Virus record (IMG/VR): IMGVR_UViG_3300029286_003706
Coordinates: 1-64,000 of that record
Length of the DNA stretch: 64,000 nucleotides
Source: a virus
Direction: 5' to 3' (one strand)
Shown: positions 3,058-54,043 of the stretch, piece after piece
Layout: every line of letters begins with the position of its first letter
Position numbering within the stretch: position 1 is the first letter of the stretch
Translations under genes and position numbers: made by a program
Notes under the pieces: generated by a model
What the model was told of the DNA's origin: nothing
Databases searched by the model: none
Seen by the model: the letters and a program-made list of their open reading frames with translations, nothing else

Positions 3058-4266
3058 ATGATTAGAATTTTAGCTTTAAGCTCGGACACGGACGGTGTAG
3101 GTCAATGGAGAATTTTAAATCCACATCTATGTATAAATGAACCAGATATAGAAGTTGATGTTCGTTTATTTATGGATGGAACAATGAATTTAATGGATGA
3201 AAGATTTTTATCACAATATAATATACTTTTTTTTAATAAAGTGATACCTTTTAGTAAACCAGAATATGTAGATATGTTTTTTGGTTTGTGTAAAAAAATT
3301 GGTGTAAAAATAATATATGACATAGATGATTTTTGGGAACTACACAGTTCACACCTGAATTACGACACTTGGAAGAAAACTGGTGGGGATAAATCGATAA
3401 CAGATATGATAAAAAGGGCGGATGCGGTTACTACCACAACACAAATATTTGCAGATAAAATTAAAGAATTAAATCCAAATGTTTATGTTTTGGAAAATGC
3501 TGTAAATTTGGAAGAACAACAATGGGTATTTAATCGAAGGTCATCATCTAAGGTGAGATTCCTATGGGGGGGTGGAATTTCACATATTGCTGATCTTCGT
3601 TTATTGAAACGTTCAATTGAAATGTTTAATAAGGATAAGAACGGATTTTTAAAGGGTGCTCAATTATTTATGTGTGGATTTGATTTAAGGATGAGAACCC
3701 CACATGGAACAGTTCCAATTTCGGATTGGAGAACTAATCAATGGACATTTTTTGAGGATATGTTCACTTATAACAATAGATATTTGACCAATAATGAACA
3801 CAGACAATTTTTATTGAAATATGATGATAAAAATTACGGATTCAACGAGGAATTTATAGATGATTTTTATCAGAGAAGATGGACGCGCCCAATCATCACA
3901 TATGGTTATATGTATAATGAAGCTGATGTTTGTTTAGCACCATTAAGAAATAATAACAATTTCAATAAATATAAAAGTAATCTTAAAATAGTGGAGGCTG
4001 GAGCACATCATTGTCCTATAATAGCATCTAATTTTGGTCCTTATACTATTGATGATATTGAAGGTAAGAAAGATGGTAAACAAAAAGGTTTCTTAATTGA
4101 TGAAGATGATACTGAAGGGTGGCATGAAAAAATGACATTTTATTATGAAAATCCAACAATAATGCTGGAACATGGTGAAAATATGTTTGAATATGTTAAA
4201 AATAATTTGAGTATAGATGTAGTGGGTAAGAAAAGATGTGATTTATATAGAAAAATTGTTGTCTAA
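3058..4266 (+). CDS. glycosyltransferase (GT-B, GT4-like)
   Basis: YDIDDFW, ADAVTTTT, WGGGISH..DL, LAPL...FNKYKSNLKIVEAG...PIIAS. Confidence 0.85.
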   Translation: MIRILALSSDTDGVGQWRILNPHLCINEPDIEVDVRLFMDGTMNLMDERFLSQYNILFFNKVIPFSKPEYVDMFFGLCKKIGVKIIYDIDDFWELHSSHLNYDTWKKTGGDKSITDMIKRADAVTTTTQIFADKIKELNPNVYVLENAVNLEEQQWVFNRRSSSKVRFLWGGGISHIADLRLLKRSIEMFNKDKNGFLKGAQLFMCGFDLRMRTPHGTVPISDWRTNQWTFFEDMFTYNNRYLTNNEHRQFLLKYDDKNYGFNEEFIDDFYQRRWTRPIITYGYMYNEADVCLAPLRNNNNFNKYKSNLKIVEAGAHHCPIIASNFGPYTIDDIEGKKDGKQKGFLIDEDDTEGWHEKMTFYYENPTIMLEHGENMFEYVKNNLSIDVVGKKRCDLYRKIVV

Positions 4267-5349
4267 ATAATTATTTAGTTTTTCTATAACATTTTCATCG
4301 TATTTAATTCTAATTAATTTAATATTATTATTTTTACAATATTCATTTTTAATATGATCTCTAATTTTATTTTCTTCAAAGATTTTTTCACCACCAAAGT
4401 ATTCTATTGGTTCAAAATGTTGTACACCATCGAATTCAATGCAAATATTATGTTCAGGTAAATAAAAATCAAAATATAAATATTTTTTATATGAACAATT
4501 TTTAAAATTTTTTTGTTCTTTAAATGAAAATTTATTATCATTTAAATATTTTCTTATTGTTTTTTGACCATTACTATCTTTTCCACAGGAATGACATCCA
4601 CAACCTTTAGTATGATTTGAAGCTATTTGTTCAAAAATCCCATGAATCGGACATATTATTTCAATTTTAGATTTTTGATTAATATATTTTCCATTGATTA
4701 GTGAATAGTCATATTTATAATTATGTTTTTTATTGGAGTTTTCAATAAATTTATGGGAACCAATAAATTGATTTAAATTTGAACATTTTTTGCAACCTCT
4801 TCCATATAAATGTCTATCGACTCTTTGTTCGAAAACACCGTGTTTTGGACATATAATTTTTATTTTTTGTTTATTATTTTTAATATTTAAAACAAGTTCA
4901 TAATTATAATAATTATTATGAATTTTTGATGATTTTGTTAAAAATTCATTTAATTGTATTTTACAACATTTTGGACATCCATTTCCAGACATATGATCAC
5001 CAGATCTTTGTTCGAAAATACCATGTTTTGGACATATAATTTTTATTTTTGTAGAATTATTTTTATAATCAACAAGAGAATAATTATATTTATTATTATG
5101 AATTAGATTTGATTTTTCTATAAATTCTTCAGTTGTTAGTTTTTTATTGCCATTACATTTCGAACATCCTTGTCCAATGTAATAATGAGAATGTGGTTTT
5201 TGTTCAAATATACCATGATTTGGACATATTATTTTTACTTTTGTTCTGGAATTCTTATAATCAACAAGAGAATAATCATATTTATCACCATGAATTTCCT
5301 TTGACTTTTTTATAAATTCACTTCTTGTAAATCCATTCATATCCAACAT
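4243..5349 (-). CDS. homing-type endonuclease with four Zn-ribbon repeats and a C-terminal Vsr/DUF559-like nuclease domain
   Basis: Four repeats of YDYSLV.YKN...KIKIICPxHGIFEQ...H..G.GCxxC; FDFYLPEHNICIEFDGVQHF. Confidence 0.8.
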   Translation of the reverse strand: MLDMNGFTRSEFIKKSKEIHGDKYDYSLVDYKNSRTKVKIICPNHGIFEQKPHSHYYIGQGCSKCNGNKKLTTEEFIEKSNLIHNNKYNYSLVDYKNNSTKIKIICPKHGIFEQRSGDHMSGNGCPKCCKIQLNEFLTKSSKIHNNYYNYELVLNIKNNKQKIKIICPKHGVFEQRVDRHLYGRGCKKCSNLNQFIGSHKFIENSNKKHNYKYDYSLINGKYINQKSKIEIICPIHGIFEQIASNHTKGCGCHSCGKDSNGQKTIRKYLNDNKFSFKEQKNFKNCSYKKYLYFDFYLPEHNICIEFDGVQHFEPIEYFGGEKIFEENKIRDHIKNEYCKNNNIKLIRIKYDENVIEKLNNYLDNNFSI

Positions 5350-5414
5350 ATAAAATTATTTTGTTTTTGTTTGTTAAATAATTCTGAAAATTTTTTTTAT
5401 ATCACAAACCGCCG

Positions 5415-5422
5415 TATCTTTG
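5415..5422 (+). promoter_or_regulatory. Bacteroidota-type -7 element TATCTTTG driving the micro-ORF array
   Basis: CGTATCTTTGTA, about 25 nt before ATG 5447. Confidence 0.7.
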
Positions 5423-5446
5423 TATTGTCATTCAAACATACATAAA

Positions 5447-5473
5447 ATGAAAACGACAAGACCCCCACCCTGA
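5447..5473 (+). CDS. micro-ORF MKTTRPPP
   Basis: ATG AAA ACG ACA AGA CCC CCA CCC TGA. Confidence 0.6.
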   Translation: MKTTRPPP

Positions 5474-5528
5474 TCAAAAATATGGCTATAAAAATAGATT
5501 CTTATATATAAATCTTAATCCCTACGAA

Positions 5529-5561
5529 ATGAAAATAAAAACAAGACCCCCACCCCGATAA
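5529..5561 (+). CDS. micro-ORF MKIKTRPPPR
   Basis: ATG AAA ATA AAA ACA AGA CCC CCA CCC CGA TAA. Confidence 0.6.
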   Translation: MKIKTRPPPR

Positions 5562-5610
5562 AAATATGGCTATAAAATAGATTCTTATATTAGATAAAAA
5601 CACATAGAAA

Positions 5611-5643
5611 ATGAAAAAGAGACCAAGACCCCCGCCCAATTGA
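5611..5643 (+). CDS. micro-ORF MKKRPRPPPN
   Basis: ATG AAA AAG AGA CCA AGA CCC CCG CCC AAT TGA. Confidence 0.6.
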   Translation: MKKRPRPPPN

Positions 5644-5701
5644 AATGATATACTTATGATAAATTATATAATATATAGAAAAATTAATGATTTTAAAAAA
5701 G

Positions 5702-5730
5702 AAAAACCCCGAATGTATCGGGGTTTTTTT
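5702..5730. terminator. bidirectional intrinsic terminator
   Basis: AAAAACCCCGA-ATGTA-TCGGGGTTTTTTT between convergent units. Confidence 0.9.
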
Positions 5731-5731
5731 A

Positions 5732-6505
5732 TTATGTATCATTTGATGAAACGGGATTTTCAGATTGCCATTTTTCATAAAAATCACCCCAAGAAGTAAT
5801 TAAAAATTTTTGTCTTTCGGTATCAAAAACTATTGTTTTATCATAGGTATCACCCATATTAACATATAAACCTATTATATCATAATAATATTTGTTTACA
5901 AAAGCATTTTCATCGGTAATTGGTTCGACACCAAATCCATTAAGTATTTTATTTGCTTCTTCTAATATTTCGTCAACCATTTTATATTTTTGTAAAAGAT
6001 AATCACCCATTCTCATTTGTTTTTTTCTCAATGGTGATTTATCATTTATTTTTTTGTTCCAATAATATAATTTACTTTTAATTAATTCAATTTTATCATC
6101 AACAGATTCGTTTATAAATTGATCATATTTTTTGATATGTATGTTTTCATACGGAGAATTTGAATCTGACAATCCAGAACCTCTTTCTAAACGATAGTTT
6201 TTGGATAACCAATCTTCTGTTATACCACCTTCATTATATTCATTTAAATCGGCTGGTTCTTCGATAAATTCTTCTGTTTCTGTATTATAGATACATAATC
6301 CAAGTCCATCTGGATTATCATATTTACCCGGTTTTTTACGAAATTTTATTAATAACATTTCAACATTTAAAACATTCGGATCTGAAACATATCCTATAAC
6401 ATCAAAGGGTTCAAACATATCAGATGCTTTTTTTAACCCATTAAATTTTCTTTTTGGTATTATTTTATCTTTTTTTCTTTTTGGTATTATTTTATCTTTT
6501 TTCAT
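5732..6505 (-). CDS. hypothetical two-module protein with internal capsid-targeting-like tag
   Basis: Internal HIKKYDQFINES; N-terminal KKDKIIPKR duplicated in tandem. Confidence 0.65.
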   Translation of the reverse strand: MKKDKIIPKRKKDKIIPKRKFNGLKKASDMFEPFDVIGYVSDPNVLNVEMLLIKFRKKPGKYDNPDGLGLCIYNTETEEFIEEPADLNEYNEGGITEDWLSKNYRLERGSGLSDSNSPYENIHIKKYDQFINESVDDKIELIKSKLYYWNKKINDKSPLRKKQMRMGDYLLQKYKMVDEILEEANKILNGFGVEPITDENAFVNKYYYDIIGLYVNMGDTYDKTIVFDTERQKFLITSWGDFYEKWQSENPVSSNDT

Positions 6506-6516
6506 ATTTTATTAAT

Positions 6517-6780
6517 TTATTTTATTAATTCATCTAAATCATAGATAAATTTATCACTTAACATTTGTATATTGGTTAGTTGTTCTGATAATCTTTTAAT
6601 ATAATTTTGAATTGTGTATTTTGATGATTTTAAAATGTTATTTCTATATTCATCTATTAATTTTACAAAATCAATTTCCAAATCTTCCTGCCAAGGATAA
6701 TCTAAAAAACCAATAACTTTATTTTTATAATCATCATCAGAAATATTTTCGTTTAATTTAAATTCTTTTATATGTTTCAT
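6517..6780 (-). CDS. small protein with capsid-targeting-like tag
   Basis: MKHIKEFKLNENIS. Confidence 0.65.
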   Translation of the reverse strand: MKHIKEFKLNENISDDDYKNKVIGFLDYPWQEDLEIDFVKLIDEYRNNILKSSKYTIQNYIKRLSEQLTNIQMLSDKFIYDLDELIK

Positions 6781-6795
6781 GTGTGAATTTTTATT

Positions 6796-9513
6796 TTATA
6801 TATTATTTTCAAAATCTTGAAATTTAGTAATAATCGATTCATTTGATTTATAATGTTCATTTTTCCACAATTTATATAATACTTTTTCTTGATACATTAG
6901 TTGTTTATTTTTTAAAATATCAATTGGTTCAATATTTTTGTTACTACCGAGTGATTTATAATATTTAAGTGGATCTTTTCCTGCTTTTCTTAACATATCT
7001 TTTTCTGCGGAACTCATTAAATGAAGTTGTCTTTCTTCATCTGGAACATCTTCACTTTTCATATAATTTTCAATTGATATAATTTGTACATCTGATGTAC
7101 CATTCACCATTCTCCAATCTGGTACTTGTCTATCTATGGGTGTGTTTTTATCAAAAAAAACAGTTTCGATTGTCCATTTTTTATTCCAAATTTTTAGCTT
7201 TAATTTTTCTTCTAATTCATCTATAATTTTTACAAAAACTTCTCTATTTGGATAATTCCAAAAGGATATTATTTTTTTATTTAACCACAATCTTCCAGAA
7301 TAGTTACGACAATTATCATCTACCCATTTAAAACCTTTAATGGAAATTGAATCGTGGGTTTCACCACCTTCACCAATCGCTACAATTACATCATCTCCTT
7401 GTAAATGACCAATGAAAGGTATTGCGTAATCATTTTTGTAAGTTAAATTATATTTATCGATATGATCGGGTGATTCGTTCATTTTTTCCTGATACATGGT
7501 TATAAATTCAAAATATTTTTCTAATTCATTTTCAGTTTCAAAATATTTTACATCCTGATGTGGTTTATAATTTACCATTTCACGCCCTTTAATTATCAAT
7601 CCATCATATCCCAATTTTATCATTTCATCTTCAATTGTAGTATTTTCTTTAAAAAATTGTAAATCATAATATTCTTTTCTATTATTATTTTTAGAAAAAT
7701 TAATGATAAGGTTTTGTATCCAAATTTCAGCGTTATTTAACGAATCAACTATTTTTGGATGTTTGGGTATCGCGTTTATAACATAATATAATTTGCCATA
7801 TTGTTTAGTCATTATTTTATTACTTAATGGAACTGTATATAAACCTTTACCAAATGATCCATAAACATCATTATATTTTCCTAATTCTTTTATACCCCTT
7901 AATGTAACATTTTTTCTTTTCCAATCCAAATAATCTTTTCGATTTTTCATATTTTCTTGATACATCAATTGTTTATTTTTTAAAATATCAATTGGTTCAA
8001 TATTTTTGTTACTACCAAGTGATTTGTAATATTTAAGTGGGTCTTTTCCAGATTTTCTTAACATATCCTTTTCAGCAGAACTCATTAAATGTAATTTTCT
8101 TAATTCATCGGGTTGATCTTCACTTTTTAAATATTCTTCAATAGGTATTAATTTTGTGGTAATATTTTCTTTGCCATTTTTTGATGAAATACATTGAAGA
8201 TAATTTTTATCAATTGCAACTTCACCTTTGAATAGAAATATTTCTATTTTCCAACCATTATTCCATATTTTATTAGAAATATTACCATACCAATTTATTA
8301 TTTTTTCTTTTAAAATAACCTCCAATTGATTTATAATATCTTCAAAGTCTTTTCTATTTGGGTATGTCCAAAATGATATAATTTTTTCACTAATCCATAA
8401 TCTACCGGGATATTTTATTGTCAAATTCCAATTATCTTGATGGTGTATTGAAACGTGACTCGTTCCCCAATCACCCACACAAACTTTCAGTTCACTTGAT
8501 TCTATAACACAATCAAATGGTAAAGCTTGTCCATTTGTCCATTTAATTTCTTGTTCTTTATAAATTATATTATCTGGTGATTCATTCATTTTTTCCTGAT
8601 AAATGGCTTGTTTATATGCTAATGGCGTTTGTTTACCAAGTGATTTGTAATATTTCAATGGGTCTTTTCCAGAACGTACTGTAAAAGGCAATGCGTCGTG
8701 ATTTAAATAAAATTTTTTATATTTATCAATATAATCAGGTGATTCGTTTAATGATTTAGATATTTTGATTAAACAACCATTATCTTCAAAAGAATTACGG
8801 TAATCCACAAATCCGAATTTTTTGAAAAAATTATAAAATCTTCTTTGCATAACATTTTCTATAAAAAAATTCTTCTCTTTATATTTATCCAATATTCGTT
8901 TTAATATAAGTGTGAATAATCCGGTTCCTCGTTTTACAGATTCTATTGTTGCTAAATCTATAACACTTATCAATTCATTATTATATACTCTTTTTGATTT
9001 TCTAACATACATTTTAAATCCATATACATAAATCCATTTGTTTCTTTCATTACCTTTAAGAAAATTATCAAATAAATCAATAAATTCATTTACAATATCA
9101 TCATTCAATATTGATTTTTTTGATTCGGAAATAAATTCCGGTTTAACTTTCATATAATCAAATAAATGTTCTTGATTTCTGGGTATTTCCACAGCAACTT
9201 CCGGAATCCCAAGTTCTTCAGCTGCCAAAATACGATGTCTACCATCACCAAAGGAGATAATATCATTGTAAATACCAACCACACTTGGTTCAAAAATTGG
9301 ATACCTTTGTATTTTTTTAGCTTCTGGATTATTCCAATTCTTAATAATATATTCTTTCGCTCTCTGAACCCTATTTCCAATTTGATTCTTACCACCTCTT
9401 ATACTGTAACTAGGGCTATCCTGTTCTAATCTATCTAATATTTTTGTTGGTGATACAAATATTATTTTATCACCCTTGTATCTAACTTCATATCTGATAT
9501 CTCTTAAATTCAT
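6796..9513 (-). CDS. 905-aa multidomain polyprotein (ParB/Srx-like, GNAT-like, ART-like and a duplicated unknown module)
   Basis: FGDGRHRILAA; KRGTGLF; FGKGLY...GYDGLII; modules separated by (I/L/M)xES motifs; ends IITKFQDFENNI. Confidence 0.7.
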   Translation of the reverse strand: MNLRDIRYEVRYKGDKIIFVSPTKILDRLEQDSPSYSIRGGKNQIGNRVQRAKEYIIKNWNNPEAKKIQRYPIFEPSVVGIYNDIISFGDGRHRILAAEELGIPEVAVEIPRNQEHLFDYMKVKPEFISESKKSILNDDIVNEFIDLFDNFLKGNERNKWIYVYGFKMYVRKSKRVYNNELISVIDLATIESVKRGTGLFTLILKRILDKYKEKNFFIENVMQRRFYNFFKKFGFVDYRNSFEDNGCLIKISKSLNESPDYIDKYKKFYLNHDALPFTVRSGKDPLKYYKSLGKQTPLAYKQAIYQEKMNESPDNIIYKEQEIKWTNGQALPFDCVIESSELKVCVGDWGTSHVSIHHQDNWNLTIKYPGRLWISEKIISFWTYPNRKDFEDIINQLEVILKEKIINWYGNISNKIWNNGWKIEIFLFKGEVAIDKNYLQCISSKNGKENITTKLIPIEEYLKSEDQPDELRKLHLMSSAEKDMLRKSGKDPLKYYKSLGSNKNIEPIDILKNKQLMYQENMKNRKDYLDWKRKNVTLRGIKELGKYNDVYGSFGKGLYTVPLSNKIMTKQYGKLYYVINAIPKHPKIVDSLNNAEIWIQNLIINFSKNNNRKEYYDLQFFKENTTIEDEMIKLGYDGLIIKGREMVNYKPHQDVKYFETENELEKYFEFITMYQEKMNESPDHIDKYNLTYKNDYAIPFIGHLQGDDVIVAIGEGGETHDSISIKGFKWVDDNCRNYSGRLWLNKKIISFWNYPNREVFVKIIDELEEKLKLKIWNKKWTIETVFFDKNTPIDRQVPDWRMVNGTSDVQIISIENYMKSEDVPDEERQLHLMSSAEKDMLRKAGKDPLKYYKSLGSNKNIEPIDILKNKQLMYQEKVLYKLWKNEHYKSNESIITKFQDFENNI
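6884..8091. repeat. ~140-nt internal direct repeat (about 6884-7023 and 7952-8091; partial third copy near 8635-8672)
   Basis: Encodes LHLMSSAEKDMLRK(S/A)GKDPLKYYKSLGSNKNIEPIDILKNKQLMYQE twice and GKDPLKYYKSLG a third time. Confidence 0.9.
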
Positions 9514-9574: not shown

Positions 9575-9775
9575 ATGTTTATAGTAAAAGTAAAAGATCA
9601 AAATAGTATCGATAGAGCCTTGAAAATTCTTAAAAATAAGATGATCAAAACTGGAATGGTGAAAGAATTGAGACGTAGATCAGAATTTGTTAAACCATCG
9701 ATAATAAGAAGGGATGAAATTAAAAAAGCCATTTATATACAAAAATTACGTGACGAAGAATCAAAAAATGAATAA
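9575..9775 (+). CDS. rpsU: ribosomal protein bS21 (Bacteroidota-type)
   Basis: SIDRALKILK...KTG.VKELR.R.EFVKPS..RR...KKAIY54. Confidence 0.92.
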   Translation: MFIVKVKDQNSIDRALKILKNKMIKTGMVKELRRRSEFVKPSIIRRDEIKKAIYIQKLRDEESKNE

Positions 9776-10691: not shown

Positions 10692-11915
10692 CTATATTTC
10701 TATTCGTATCATTTTATCATTGTTGATATTATAATACATCTGATTCAGATTGAAATCTAAATCGTGGGTGAACCATACACCCTTAACTTTTTTACCGATA
10801 TTTATCGCTGAATTTAAATCACGATCTATAAACAAATCTTTTGACACTTCCACAATTCTGTTATCTAATTGACTAGAAAACATAATTTCATCGGTTAAAC
10901 AATTTTGTTGTGAAGTATAGGCTTCATTTACATGATAATGATCAATATTTACTTTTTTGGATTTATATTCCAGAAAAGTTTTAAATCTACCCAGTGCAAG
11001 GGTTGATTTAGATATTCCACTTAATTTTTTATTTTCTTTACAAATTACCTTTTTCACTTTTAAATCACCAATAATTAATGAACCAATATTATTTTCGACA
11101 CATTCGTTAACTATATATGTTGACACTTTATGTTGGAAATCAATTACTTTATTTGATAATTTTCTTTTTTGTTTCTTAAATATATCATTTATTTTTTTAT
11201 ATTTATTACTATATTTCTTTTTTTTATCTTTAATTGATTGAAGATGTTCAATAGTTTTTTCTAGTTTATTTAGTTTAAAATTTTTAATTTGAATATTATT
11301 CATACAATTTGAATAACTGGTAACAATATTACTATATCCCAAATCAATTGACATAAAATTATTTTTATTTAATTTATTGTTTGATGATTTTTCAGTATAA
11401 ACAAAAACTACATAATAATCATTTTCATTTTCACGTTTAAAAGTAATAGTTTTAATATTTTCATTATTTATTATTGAACAATATCCCGGAAGATTGATTA
11501 CTAATTTCTTAGATAAATCCTGTGATGTGTCCAAAAGATTTATAATTAATTTATCACCAATGATTTTAAATCCACCCATACCTTTATTATAATCAAGGAT
11601 AAACGAAGTAAAATATTTATATGATTTGAATTTATACGGAAATTTAGAGGTAATATCCTTTTTACGTTTTTCATAAAACGATTTAATATTATTAGTTAAA
11701 TTTTTACAAGTATTTTGTGCGGATTTACTATTTATTGTTAATTTATTTGAAGATCTATAATCAACATATTTATCGTTTAATTCTTTAAAAGTTAATGTTT
11801 TTTCTTTAATACTATTCAATAAATGATTATATAATAAACGATGTTCATTAGAAAGAGTTTCCAATTTTATTTTTTGATTATAGTTTAATATCAATTTAAC
11901 TTTTAACGATAACAT
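10692..11915 (-). mobile_element. tnpB: TnpB RNA-guided nuclease (IS200/IS605-IS607 OrfB family), no adjacent transposase
   Basis: RLLYN, RuvC-I SIDLG, IIGDL, VNEAYTSQ, RuvC-III IDRDLNSAINI. Confidence 0.88.
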
Positions 11916-36162: not shown

Positions 36163-36711
36163 ATGATAACCAAATTTCAAATATATGAAGCTCAAATTAG
36201 AGATTGTATTGAAAAAACTAAAAAATCTAAATATAAATCTAATCCAGATATAGAATCTTATATTAATAAAAGTGCTAATCGAAAATTTGAAGATGATTCA
36301 CCTTTATTGTATACTGTTTATTTGGAAGATTATGATATAAATTTAAATTTTGAATACTATGATACTCCATCTCATAGTATAAAAGAGAAAATAAAAAATA
36401 GAACATCACTCAAAAGTGTATCAGAATTTAATGATGTTTTTGAAAAAACTATAAAAACTATAATACCAGATAAATTAGGAATTGGAATAGATAAAATTGA
36501 TAAAAAAGGTTGTTATGCTCTTTATTTAATGGAAAATAAATTTTTTATTTTAATAGATATTGATCCAAATTCTTTAATCGAAGGTTATTTTATTGATAAA
36601 TATGGTAGAAAAACTACAAAAAAATATCATTCCTTTGTTATCACAATACACGATAAATCTAGCATTGATAGATATTATAAAATGTTTGATATAGATGATA
36701 GTAATTTTTAA
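36163..36711 (+). CDS. protein with capsid-targeting-like tag
   Basis: MITKFQIYEAQ directly after TAATATATA. Confidence 0.7.
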   Translation: MITKFQIYEAQIRDCIEKTKKSKYKSNPDIESYINKSANRKFEDDSPLLYTVYLEDYDINLNFEYYDTPSHSIKEKIKNRTSLKSVSEFNDVFEKTIKTIIPDKLGIGIDKIDKKGCYALYLMENKFFILIDIDPNSLIEGYFIDKYGRKTTKKYHSFVITIHDKSSIDRYYKMFDIDDSNF

Positions 36712-36777
36712 AAATTTACTATTAAATTTTTTTATTAACAAAAATCATCGTATCTTTGTATTTCAAAAATAAAATAT

Positions 36778-37017
36778 ATGGAACTCATCGAAAAAGTAAA
36801 AGAAATGTCACAGTTTATAGGACTTTCCGATAATAAACAGGAATATTGTATGTGTGATGGTATCGTTGAATTTCATTTTATTGGTGATCCTGATCTTGAA
36901 ATAATTATCGAAAAACTTCATAATTTAACCAATTTTTTAACCCAAGAATTGAAAAGTGGAAATATCGAAACTTTTTTAGATAGAGATTTTGAAACTGATG
37001 TTTGGTTTACATTATAA
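36778..37017 (+). CDS. hypothetical early protein
   Basis: After TATCTTTG at 36751-36758. Confidence 0.7.
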   Translation: MELIEKVKEMSQFIGLSDNKQEYCMCDGIVEFHFIGDPDLEIIIEKLHNLTNFLTQELKSGNIETFLDRDFETDVWFTL

Positions 37018-37368: not shown

Positions 37369-37989
37369 CTATACTGACCTTAAACCATTTCTCCATAAAT
37401 GATGTTTCAAACAAAATTTTTGAAACCCTCCTGTTATAATATATTCATTGCCAATTGGGTCTATTATTTTATATTTTTTATAGTTGTGATTTTTATCTCC
37501 TGTTTTAGATAATCTAATTTTTTCTTTGGTTTTATCACTATGACCAATACCATATAACGGATGTTTTTCACCAGATATACTTTTACTCTGTTTTTCTTTT
37601 GATTCTTGACTTCTTTTTTTACCCATTAACGACAAAGATATTTTATCTCTTATTTCATTTGTTCTACAATAAAAACCACCATCTCCACCATCCCCACCTT
37701 GAGTCATGTTATATCCTTTTATAAAAGATTCATATTTATCAATGAAAAATATTTCTTTTTCATTGAGTTTTTTTTTATCATCACAAGTGTATAAAATTTC
37801 CCATTCAAAATTTTCTTCACCATATTTACGAATAGCATTATAAAAGATTCTGGGATGACACCCCTTTTTCAAATCATATCCATTTTTAGCTGATCGAATG
37901 TGTATATGTTTGTATTTTTCGAAGTCCTGAATAGTTTTACCTATATACATTTTACCATTTAATTTGTTTTGCACTTTATATATTATCAT
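37369..37989 (-). CDS. GIY-YIG homing endonuclease with NUMOD3 repeats; C-terminus appears frameshifted
   Basis: IIYK...MYIGKT, AIRKYG.ENF, GYNMT.GGDG, HSDKTKEKIR; HKGWKC tail lies in another frame. Confidence 0.88.
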   Translation of the reverse strand: MIIYKVQNKLNGKMYIGKTIQDFEKYKHIHIRSAKNGYDLKKGCHPRIFYNAIRKYGEENFEWEILYTCDDKKKLNEKEIFFIDKYESFIKGYNMTQGGDGGDGGFYCRTNEIRDKISLSLMGKKRSQESKEKQSKSISGEKHPLYGIGHSDKTKEKIRLSKTGDKNHNYKKYKIIDPIGNEYIITGGFQKFCLKHHLWRNGLRSV

Positions 37990-38107
37990 AATCTGTGAAA
38001 TGGTTTTTTATTGTATCATCCATTGATACTAAAAATATATATTAAATCTGTGAGATGATTTTTTTATATCATAAAAAATTTATATCTTTGTAAAAAATAA
38101 AATAGTT

Positions 38108-39532
38108 ATGTTAGAAATTAAAGGAAAATATACAACTGCTAAAATTATGACTGATGTTGTAGAACTGTCAGCTTTAACACAAATTTATAATATGGTATCA
38201 CATCCAGCATTTACTAATGAAATAGTTATGCAAATAGATTTACACGCTGGTGCTTCAGCACCAATAGGATTTACGATGCCTTTATCTGAAAAAATTGTCC
38301 CGAATACAGTATCGGTGGATATTGGATGTGGGGTTTTAGTCATTTGCATGGGTGAAAATTTCACTACTAACAAAGATAAGTTATTGAAAATGGATGAAAA
38401 AATTAGGAATATTGTTCCAATGGGTAATAATATCCAAGAAAAATCAGTCATTCCATCAAAATATTTTGAAAAGAATTTTCCTTGGAAAGAAACTAATGAT
38501 ATTGTTAAAAAATTCATTATTACATATAACAAAAAATTCAATACTAATTTTAATAGTATAGAATTTACATATGACTGGTTTTTGAAAAGACAAAAAGAAA
38601 TTGGAATGAAACAAGATGCTGAATTGGCAATAGGATCACTCGGTAGGGGGAATCATTTTATAAGTATTGAAAAATCAGTTAATTACAATTCTACTTGGTT
38701 ACTTATTCATTGTGGTTCAAGAAATTTTGGTAAAATGATTTGCGAATATCACATGAAAATTGCTAAAAAGGATTTAGACAACAAAAGAAATGTTGTGTTA
38801 ACAAAAAAAATTAATGAAATTAAATTAAATTTTTCTGGTGATATAATTCCATCTAAAATTAAGGAAGCAAAAAAAGATTTGGGTATTGATTTTGAAACAA
38901 ATATGATTGGAATGGAATATCTTGAAGGACAACACGCTATGGATTATTTCATTGATATGGTATTTGCACAAAAATATGCTCAATTTAATCGTTCAACTAT
39001 TTCTAATAATATTCTTAAATCCATTGGAGAAAAAGAAACTGATAGAATTGAATCTATTCATAATTATATAGACTTTTCAGATTTGATTCTTAGAAAAGGT
39101 GCAATTCGTTCATATATTGATGAAAGATTAGTTGTTCCAATTTCTATGGCTTTTGGTTCTTTTTTATGTAAAGGTAAATCAAATCCGGATTTTAATTATA
39201 GTGGGCCTCACGGTGCAGGAAGATTAATGAGTAGGGGGGTTGCATCCAGATCAATTGATATGAAAGATTTTGAATTTCAAATGAAAGGAATTGTATCAAC
39301 ATCAGTAGTAAAAAGTTGTTTAGATGAAAGTCCAAATGCTTATAAAAAACCAAAGGATATTGAAATTGGAATAGAACCTACTGCTGAAATTATTGATCAT
39401 TTGATTCCACTCTTAAATATTAAAGATAAAAATGAAACTACCAATTGGAAAGAAAGAAAAGAGAAAGAGAAAAGAGAAAAATCTGAAAGGGTAAATCATA
39501 AGGAAATGAGAAATGCAAGGGGTAAATTTTAA
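38108..39532 (+). CDS. rtcB: RtcB RNA ligase
   Basis: VDIGCG, GSLGRGNHF, HCGSR, HNY, RKGA, HGAGR, DESP.AYK. Confidence 0.93.
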   Translation: MLEIKGKYTTAKIMTDVVELSALTQIYNMVSHPAFTNEIVMQIDLHAGASAPIGFTMPLSEKIVPNTVSVDIGCGVLVICMGENFTTNKDKLLKMDEKIRNIVPMGNNIQEKSVIPSKYFEKNFPWKETNDIVKKFIITYNKKFNTNFNSIEFTYDWFLKRQKEIGMKQDAELAIGSLGRGNHFISIEKSVNYNSTWLLIHCGSRNFGKMICEYHMKIAKKDLDNKRNVVLTKKINEIKLNFSGDIIPSKIKEAKKDLGIDFETNMIGMEYLEGQHAMDYFIDMVFAQKYAQFNRSTISNNILKSIGEKETDRIESIHNYIDFSDLILRKGAIRSYIDERLVVPISMAFGSFLCKGKSNPDFNYSGPHGAGRLMSRGVASRSIDMKDFEFQMKGIVSTSVVKSCLDESPNAYKKPKDIEIGIEPTAEIIDHLIPLLNIKDKNETTNWKERKEKEKREKSERVNHKEMRNARGKF

Positions 39533-53101: not shown

Positions 53102-54043
53102 TTATTTTAAAAATAATGAACTTAATGATTTATTTGTATCTATTTTTTTAATAGCTTTTGCCAACATATCGGAACAACTTAAAACAATAATTTTCGATGA
53201 TTGTTGTTTTAATGGAATGGTATCAAGAACAAATATTTCTGTTATTTTTGATTTTTCTAAATTTTCATAAGCATTTCCAGATAAAACTGGATGTGTTACC
53301 AAGCATCTTACACTTTTTGCACCTTTATCCATCATAAGATCAGCAGCTTTACATAAAGTTCCACCAGTATCTATCATATCATCTATAATAAAAACATCCT
53401 TACCAGTTACATCCCCAATAAGAATCATTTTATCAATTTCATTTTTCTTTTTACGTGTTTTGGAACAAATAACATAATCAACATTAAATTTATCAGCATA
53501 TCTAGACATACGTTTCACACCCCCGTTATCAGGGGCTGCAAATTGTAGATTTTGAATTATACCATCAGTTAACATTTTCTGAATGTGTGGCCAGAAAACA
53601 TATGTACCAAATAACTGATCAAAAGGAATATTAAAAAAAGCCCCAATCTGATCAGCGTGTAAATCAATTGAAACAACGCGAGTTGCCCCAGAAATTGTTA
53701 AAAAATCAGACATTAATTTGGATGCAATACCAACCCTTGGTTTATCTTTTCGGTCCTGTCTAGAATAAGAAAAAAATGGAATTACGGCGATGATTTGATT
53801 GGCACTCGCTCTTTTAGCGGCATCTATCATCATAAATAATTCTCCCCAATTGTCGAATGGTGGATTGGTTGATTGTATTAAATAAACATCTCTACCTCTT
53901 AAATTTTCTTCGAATGTTGGTTGAAATTCACCATCAGAAAATATCACTTTTTTAATCTTCCCCAAGGGAACACCCAGATTAAAGGCAACTTTTTCTGATA
54001 ATTCTTTACTAGCCGAACCGGAAAATATTTTTATTTTTCTCAT
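53102..54043 (-). CDS. prs: ribose-phosphate pyrophosphokinase
   Basis: FSDGE, YSRQDRK, DLHADQI, APDNGG, DDMIDTGGT. Confidence 0.97.
   Translation of the reverse strand: MRKIKIFSGSASKELSEKVAFNLGVPLGKIKKVIFSDGEFQPTFEENLRGRDVYLIQSTNPPFDNWGELFMMIDAAKRASANQIIAVIPFFSYSRQDRKDKPRVGIASKLMSDFLTISGATRVVSIDLHADQIGAFFNIPFDQLFGTYVFWPHIQKMLTDGIIQNLQFAAPDNGGVKRMSRYADKFNVDYVICSKTRKKKNEIDKMILIGDVTGKDVFIIDDMIDTGGTLCKAADLMMDKGAKSVRCLVTHPVLSGNAYENLEKSKITEIFVLDTIPLKQQSSKIIVLSCSDMLAKAIKKIDTNKSLSSLFLK

Follow-up and report, generated by a model that had tools for sequence, protein, structure and literature searches.

A 382-nt spacer (5350-5731) in a fragment of a huge freshwater phage carries three tandem mini-ORFs, all of which begin with ATGAAA and end in Arg-Pro-Pro-Pro followed by a stop codon either directly or one codon further on. 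Judged from its sequence, the array is a dedicated promoter-to-terminator transcription unit of ~300 nt on the plus strand. Our best explanation, which we hold tentatively, is that the mini-ORFs are three translated minigenes that would stall ribosomes at RPPP and act in trans, in the manner of CreT or the lambda bar minigenes.

The DNA that was analysed (the window) makes up the first 64 kb of a 78 kb IMG/VR record with a CheckV completeness of 11%, and its G+C content is ~25%. The sequencing runs that contain the sequence are lake-water metagenomes, with no RNA run among those listed. The closest GenBank matches are to uncultured huge phages (LR7565xx) and Lak megaphages, and arise only via a homing endonuclease gene. 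The standard genetic code fits the window, in which stop-to-stop ORFs of at least 100 aa cover 85.5% of the sequence; recoding of TAG or TGA was considered and dropped, and reading TAG as Gln adds almost no ORF coverage. The spacer lies between two minus-strand genes. One encodes an HNH homing endonuclease (4243-5349; PHROG 559, E = 3e-88), such that the array is directly upstream of it in the opposite orientation, and the other encodes a 257-aa protein to which no family was assigned (5732-6505). The endonuclease gene contains an internal 121-nt direct repeat (5007-5127 and 5199-5319, 192 nt apart, 83% identity), which corresponds to repeated treble-clef/zinc-ribbon modules (Pfam DUF4379 and DUF723).

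The three mini-ORFs of the preliminary description, together with their coordinates, peptides and TGA/TAA/TGA stops, were all recovered from the sequence. Mini-ORF1 (5447-5473) encodes MKTTRPPP and ends with the codons AGA CCC CCA CCC TGA, mini-ORF2 (5529-5561) encodes MKIKTRPPPR and ends with AGA CCC CCA CCC CGA TAA, and mini-ORF3 (5611-5643) encodes MKKRPRPPPN and ends with AGA CCC CCG CCC AAT TGA; all are on the plus strand. The stop is therefore zero or one codon beyond PPP in 3/3 mini-ORFs, with ORF1 reading PPP-TGA and ORF2 and ORF3 having one additional codon (R and N, respectively), and R-P-P-P, which is an Arg-x-Pro-Pro module, is present in all three. The exact 82-nt period claimed for the array holds for the ATG-to-ATG distances (82 and 82 nt), whereas the C-rich boxes are 85 and 82 nt apart. 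In the 64-kb window there are three copies of the C-rich core GACCCCCRCCC, compared with 0.10 expected from shuffled sequences, and none of 100 shuffles reached three. In ~2 Mb of four other huge-phage records there were no matches to AGACCNCCNCC. These features of the array are well beyond chance.

No credible long ORF is present in the spacer on either strand. The plus strand offers only a 47-aa ORF, in line with the earlier statement that the array strand has no long ORF, and the minus-strand ORFs over the array were rejected as TTG- or GTG-started, AT-rich junk running across the terminator. The ATGAAA start of the mini-ORFs is also that of many genes of the window. No Shine-Dalgarno sequence precedes the mini-ORFs, the leaders of which are A-rich and contain no GGAGG; the window genes are also without one, except for the bS21 gene. 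In a start-site matrix built from 57 window genes, ORF3 scores in the 98th percentile of all ATGs, which is typical of genes, and ORF1 and ORF2 reach approximately the 80th percentile, a level at which only the lowest-scoring real starts are found. The ATGAAA starts and the gene-like context of ORF3 favour translated minigenes. The contexts of ORF1 and ORF2 count against them, as does the lack of a Shine-Dalgarno sequence, although almost no window gene has one.

As 82 equals 3n+1, each mini-ORF is in the +1 frame of the preceding one, and every PPP opens with CCC-C. A +1 slip in ORF1 would lead to stop-free reading into ORF2 and a 37-aa product ending in RPPPR; between ORF2 and ORF3, two TAG codons close the corresponding route. 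The +1-frame arrangement of the mini-ORFs is probably a coincidence.

Transcription signals and RNA structure

The array is preceded on the plus strand by a two-part promoter (5393-5424) consisting of the upstream element TTTTTTATATCA (5393-5404) and the Bacteroidota-type -7 box TATCTTTGTA (5415-5424). The preliminary description had placed a host-type promoter at 5415, and the TATCTTTG promoter box does begin there. The composite TTTTTTATATCA-N10/11-TATCTTTGTA is found twice in the window, at the array and before rtcB (38060-38092), with no occurrences expected, and the two promoters share the same build. Exact copies of TATCTTTGTA number four in the window, and each is followed after 15-22 nt by an ATG: those of rtcB, the PRPP synthetase gene, a 79-aa ORF and mini-ORF1, the last being 22 nt past its box. 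Because this holds for 4/4 exact -7 boxes, the ORF1 ATG occupies the slot in which this promoter type normally puts the start codon. The rtcB gene (38108-39532, plus strand; Pfam RtcB, E = 3e-53) and the bS21 gene (9575-9775) are both present in the window, as had been noted earlier, and the PRPP synthetase gene is at 53102-54043 on the minus strand. The exact -7 box shared by the PRPP synthetase gene, rtcB and the mini-ORF unit suggests a common, possibly early, regulon. The 79-aa ORF (36778-37017, plus strand) is unannotated; it starts 17 nt behind its exact TATCTTTGTA box (region 36751-37017) and is flanked by the genes at 36163-36711 and 37369-37989.

Promoter classes were derived from the upstream regions of 65 window ORFs, and two promoter-like classes were found. 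In the first class the -7 box is extended to TAnnTTTGTA, which shows ~6-fold enrichment over the 60 nt that precede genes; the shorter TAnnTTTG, which lacks the final TA, shows none upstream of window genes. The second class is a phage box, (A)ATATATAA, which is ~12-fold enriched upstream of genes. There are 37 copies of ATATATAA in the window on both strands, 13 of which are within 60 nt upstream of genes compared with 1.1 expected. The (A)ATATATAA box is upstream of at least 13 genes (for example those at 10692, 22065, 28968, 36163, 49539 and 63073), mostly within ~25 nt of the start, and is probably the phage's own middle or late promoter. At the bS21 gene it occurs together with a TAAGGAG Shine-Dalgarno sequence. 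One such 'late-like' box is located within the array (5504-5511, plus strand), 17 nt before the ORF2 ATG. This is a typical distance, and ORF2 and ORF3 may therefore also be independently transcribed.

The unit closes with a bidirectional intrinsic terminator (5700-5730) that has a 13-bp stem with five G-C pairs, an A-run before it and a T-run after it, in keeping with the strong terminator first described. A terminator scan found two compared with 0.2 expected, with 5700-5730 scoring on both strands. This terminator ends the mini-ORF RNA and, on the opposite strand, the 5732-6505 gene. Because the composite promoter is rare, an ATG follows every exact -7 box and the terminator is strong, we take the array to be a real transcription unit, which is a point in favour of stalling minigenes. 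The terminator apart, the predicted RNA fold is not significant relative to shuffled sequences on either strand (z of -1.1 and -0.95), and the terminator hairpin alone is predicted, with no antiterminator alternative fold. No Rfam family reaches its threshold over the array; weak leader matches fall only on the terminator (20-31 bits compared with cut-offs of 47-59).

These data bear on two kinds of regulatory RNA. The preliminary description had offered as its alternative a type III toxin-antitoxin-like repeat RNA, acting as a pseudo-antitoxin or decoy, and the array does consist of tandem direct repeats followed by a terminator. A ToxI-like antitoxin, however, has structured (pseudoknotted) repeats and a downstream toxin gene on the same strand, both of which are missing here: neither strand has significant structure or an Rfam match above threshold, there is no plus-strand gene downstream of the terminator before 9575, and no toxin-family match was obtained with PADLOC among the neighbours, for which the sole match was a weak one between the endonuclease and the candidate family PDC-S69 (E = 8.5e-05). 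The units are moreover 82 nt in length, not ~36 nt. This alternative is largely refuted and hardly credible. An amino-acid attenuator needs a terminator/antiterminator pair and a downstream operon, both likewise missing, and a classical attenuator was rejected on the grounds that there is no alternative fold and no downstream plus-strand gene. With neither a downstream plus-strand gene nor a toxin match, type III toxin-antitoxin action and classical attenuation therefore do not apply.

A minus-strand TATGTTTG box (5440-5433) faces the plus-strand -7 box at a distance of 10 nt. The homing endonuclease gene may be transcribed from this box, which would give it a leader of ~77 nt, and the plus- and minus-strand promoters would then exclude each other. 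This arrangement would suit a cis sensor, in which stalling on the mini-ORFs would report the state of Pro-tRNA or EF-P and alter the fate of their own transcript, either by interference with the candidate endonuclease promoter or by terminator read-through to give an RNA antisense to genes 5732-9513. Leader-like ORFs with a run of codons for one amino acid do precede the terminator, and the genes beyond it are all on the opposite strand. We nevertheless consider a cis sensor to be quite improbable: the RNA has no antiterminator fold and folds no better than shuffled sequences (z of -1.1), 57 nt separate the ORF3 stop from the hairpin, there is no gene on the same strand before 9575 and TAnnTTTG is enriched ahead of genes only in its TA-extended form.

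Conservation and codon choice

Within the unit, only the block that begins at the ATG and ends with the last Pro codon is conserved in all three copy pairs (81-92%), and the divergence elsewhere is a mosaic. The first and second copies are 92% identical in the ATG-to-PPP block, 40% in the leader and 94% after the core; the corresponding values are 92, 70 and 59% for the first and third copies, and 81, 55 and 61% for the second and third. The 14-nt core has 13-14 of 14 matches in every copy pair, and the 13-nt C-rich box is nearly invariant, with one change in 39 nt. Conservation reaches 5' of the C-rich box, with AAAATGAAAA in 3/3 copies, and the copies differ freely in the residues that link MK to RPPP. 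The indel within the ORFs is of 3 nt, ORF2 being longer than ORF1 between the ATG and AGA, so that the frame survives the length difference as originally claimed, and the indels in the otherwise near-identical spacer of the first two copies are of 1 nt.

The restriction of conservation in all pairs to the ATG-to-PPP block, with an indel of 3 nt in the ORFs compared with 1 nt in the spacer, favours stalling minigenes. The copies are paralogues, however, and the conservation of ATG and frame is in part a matter of common descent. In the case made earlier for selection on the peptide, the single CCA>CCG change and the differing stops are real, but the argument from them is statistically weak. Common descent together with chance would account for all of the ORF features if the array were a functionless tandem duplication in a mobile-element-rich spacer. 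A homing endonuclease, TnpB and IS-like elements are found near the array, which is an orphan in all of the collections searched, among the matches listed, and is absent from a distant syntenic relative (locus L126). We consider such a duplication to be quite unlikely, since the flanks have decayed to near-random identity with the ATG-to-PPP block intact in 3/3 copies, the array is bracketed by an rtcB-type promoter and a strong terminator, and at 25% GC there is very little chance that drift would create and then maintain a C-rich run.

The C-rich codons of the array are unusual in this phage, as had been recognized at the outset. The 63 long ORFs of the window, 17,219 codons in all, contain PP only 12 times and PPP not at all. 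The Pro codons of these ORFs (n = 478) comprise 65.5% CCA and 7.9% CCC, whereas in the array CCC is used for the first and third Pro of every PPP (6/9 PPP codons). This CCC anomaly fits a nucleotide-level constraint and, equally, a deliberate choice of the slowest codon. Elsewhere in the phages scanned, CCNCCNCC is almost always CCACCACC. Another C-rich cluster, at 69560-69576 of the record, was set aside as a run of poly-Gly codons on the opposite strand.

A nucleotide-level constraint is the basis of the main rival explanation, in which the 13-nt C-rich box would itself be functional as RNA or DNA and the ORFs would be incidental. The boxes could be three protein-binding sites (for a phage or host protein), three unpaired sRNA seeds for G-rich targets or Rho-loading sites. 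Such roles are consistent with the near-invariance of the box, the use of C where the codon usage of the phage would give CCA, a very high information content at 25% GC, the predicted unpaired state of the C-rich boxes in A-rich RNA and a spacing of 85 and 82 nt, which corresponds to ~8 helical turns. Near-perfect box identity and atypical CCC codons are equally expected under this constraint, which reduces their weight as evidence for stalling minigenes. The conservation of AAAATGAAAA in 3/3 copies extends beyond the box on its 5' side, however, the indel between the ATG and the box is of 3 nt and the distance that stays constant (82 nt) is that between ATGs, not that between boxes. In addition, a complementary G-rich site or reverse complement is absent from the 78-kb record, and PPP would be expected by chance in only one reading frame of three. 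A functional C-rich box with incidental ORFs is possible, but we regard it as rather doubtful.

Stalling motif, precedents and proposed action

Among the XPPP variants tested in E. coli in an NlpD context without EF-P, RPPP gave the strongest stalling; it was grouped with the strong stallers in a CadC context, and E. coli contains it less often than expected (PMC4176338). Among the Pro codons, CCC is read most slowly, and the sequence CCC-C favours slippage into the +1 frame (PMC8129111); RxPP is a minimal, sufficient arrest module (PMC10951233). These studies support the view that the predicted motif of the array (R at -1, PPP, slow CCC and a stop zero or one codon on) unites the E. coli features for the strongest EF-P-dependent stalling (PMC4176338, PMC8129111). 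The fit of RPPP and CCC to the stalling literature, together with the absence of PPP and the rarity of CCC in the window genes, favours stalling minigenes.

In the mechanism that we propose, a ~300-nt phage RNA would be transcribed from the host-type promoter, which is built like the rtcB promoter, and possibly also from the internal late-type promoter before ORF2, and would end at the stable terminator hairpin. Each minigene of 8-10 codons would be translated, with the ribosome being driven into R-P-P-P with slow CCC codons. The stop would follow zero or one codon later, and the ribosome would stall at Pro-Pro bond formation and/or at termination after Pro; as an alternative to stalling, it could drop a short peptidyl-tRNA(Pro). 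The RNA would thereby act in trans as a sink for ribosomes, for Pro-tRNA (especially the CCC reader) and for EF-P. The phage genes in the window would be little affected because they contain no PPP and few CCC codons, although a global ribosome trap would also be costly to the phage, which counts against the proposal.

Two precedents favour the proposed stalling minigenes. The first is CreT of the Pseudomonas aeruginosa type I-F CreTA, a small RNA which has a Shine-Dalgarno sequence, an ORF of five codons in which the stop comes straight after two Pro codons, and a GC-rich 3' hairpin that its stability requires, and which arrests translation both in vivo and in a cell-free system in a Pro-codon-dependent manner (bioRxiv 10.64898/2026.06.02.729485). 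Similarly, the Pro codons of ORF1 are immediately before the stop (PPP-TGA), and the unit ends in a GC-rich 3' hairpin (5700-5730) that may have a stabilising role. Unlike in CreT, one further codon separates PPP from the stop in ORF2 and ORF3, which weighs against the stalling reading, and the array lacks the Shine-Dalgarno sequence of CreT. In place of a single 5-codon ORF, the array also has three, each 8-10 codons long and each with Arg ahead of its three Pro. CreT is located in a CRISPR locus and is repressed by the CreA guide, whereas the array is phage-borne and has no CRISPR context, with no CRISPR-like repeat at the array and with the homing endonuclease and unknown phage genes as its neighbours.

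The second precedent is provided by lambda bar and by engineered rare-codon minigenes, which inhibit protein synthesis in trans through sequestration of peptidyl-tRNA; peptidyl-tRNA drop-off is favoured for nascent chains of fewer than ~7 residues (PMC8012679, PMC2490762). The 8-10-codon ORFs are compatible with such an action, the ORF1 chain being 6-7 residues long at the predicted PPP stall. The bar minigene differs in being AUG-AUA-UAA with no Pro motif and in being toxic only in Pth-deficient hosts, and it has neither a tandem array nor a dedicated promoter-terminator unit, both of which are present here. No tRNA genes and no Pth gene were found in the 78-kb record, which at ~11% of the genome is too small a share for their absence to carry weight. 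The Arg and two Pro residues of the arrest module of the ApdA/ApdP RxPP/RAPP arrest peptides are common to all three mini-ORFs (PMC4176338, PMC10951233). These arrest peptides form the C-terminal ends of long leader proteins through which a downstream gene (such as sec or yidC) is regulated; the array is unlike them in that each whole ORF is of 8-10 codons, with no downstream gene and no N-terminal regulator module.

The dedicated unit, the conserved mini-ORFs and the stalling-type motif agree with the ribosome-directed device envisaged in the preliminary description, but its suggestion of PrAMP-like peptides found no specific support. In that version, the 8-10-residue Arg/Pro peptides would be released and would act as inhibitors by exit-tunnel binding or release-factor trapping. 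The peptides are basic and Pro-rich, and the RPRPPP of ORF3 presumably resembles the core motifs of PrAMPs (Bac7, oncocin and apidaecin). They are much shorter than active PrAMPs, however, and are without defined C-terminal motifs; the sequence that separates MK from RPPP is freely variable between copies, and nothing favours the peptide itself over the act of translation. We regard released inhibitory peptides as very improbable.

The stalling-minigene reading can be extended to a broader proposal, which we consider to be unlikely when taken as a whole. In this proposal, the RNA would be co-regulated with the RtcB RNA ligase and would jam host ribosomes, drain CCC-reading Pro-tRNA and EF-P, and skew translation towards the PPP-free, CCC-poor phage messages. 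The host would be Bacteroidota-like, and the array would be one of a wider, undescribed class of Arg-Pro-stop minigenes in large AT-rich phages. The purpose, we infer, would be selective host shutoff that spares phage genes. Phages are known to commandeer translation by means of proteins, of tRNAs and of ribosomal proteins, bS21 being one example. In the literature searched we found no report of a phage RNA whose sole job is to be badly translated, and a phage-borne proline minigene array such as the one predicted here appears to be undescribed in that literature, its principle being known from minigenes and proline-codon RNA toxins. If the stalling-minigene reading is true, the proline-codon toxin principle, which has so far been described only for a Pseudomonas module that guards CRISPR, would also apply to attack by phages, the scarcity of CCC and lack of PPP in the genes of this phage would be explained and a compact, portable ribosome-stalling tool for Bacteroidota would become available.

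Relatives and a second array

Pattern scans of IMG/VR found no homologous array, the matches listed being either unrelated GC-rich or coding sequences or the contig of a second array described below. The nine matches in a JGI metagenome pattern scan and the 120 rows returned by a GTDB genome pattern scan were all noise, and blastn of the spacer against GenBank phages gave chance AT-rich matches only. When five records were scanned for RPPP or RP-stop arrays, these were present only in G002 and were absent from Lak-B3, LR756504, LR756501 and G001. Among the matches listed there was no homologous array in which ATG, frame and codons can be compared between genomes, so as to tell selection on the peptide from selection on the nucleotides, which weighs against stalling minigenes. 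The distant syntenic relative L126, which was found through the 257-aa neighbour, has neither the endonuclease gene nor the array, and its divergence is too great for an insertion boundary to be placed. The neighbouring gene has closer relatives in P0002 (89% identical) and P0003 (70% identical).

The array search suggested in the preliminary description thus gave no homologous array among the matches listed; a different pattern led to one RPPP-stop analogue. The back-translated MEVRPPP-stop pattern is found in a single IMG/VR contig of 157.7 kb (IMGVR_UViG_3300031760_000005; locus L287), which carries a minus-strand array of mini-ORFs encoding MEVRPPP, MIRD, MIRDRP and MIRDRP (7420-7701) with spacings of 93, 86 and 92 nt. 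As in the window, the carrier is an AT-rich large phage with tandem units (of ~86-93 nt), here with ORFs of 4-7 codons, the intact ones of which end in Arg-Pro(-Pro-Pro)-stop. The two arrays differ in that there is no nucleotide homology between them and the L287 spacings are not 3n+1. The first L287 ORF is 11 nt after the stop of the upstream gene and not behind its own promoter, and the L287 array is followed by other non-coding sequence, whereas that of the window is directly followed by the terminator.

The RPPP-stop codons are CGA CCT CCG CCC TAA in L287 compared with AGA CCC CCA CCC TGA in the window. At the level of sequence, what the two arrays share is the predicted peptide ending and the tandem layout, not the DNA word. 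Because the same peptide end is encoded by different nucleotides, a function at the codon or peptide level is favoured, and the likeness, which is one case only, would argue for stalling minigenes and against a functional C-rich box. The last two L287 copies differ by synonymous changes only (ATA>ATT and CGA>AGA). In the MIRD copy the fifth codon has changed from CGA to TGA, and each of the L287 units is preceded by a repeated GATAATTTGTAAGATAT element.
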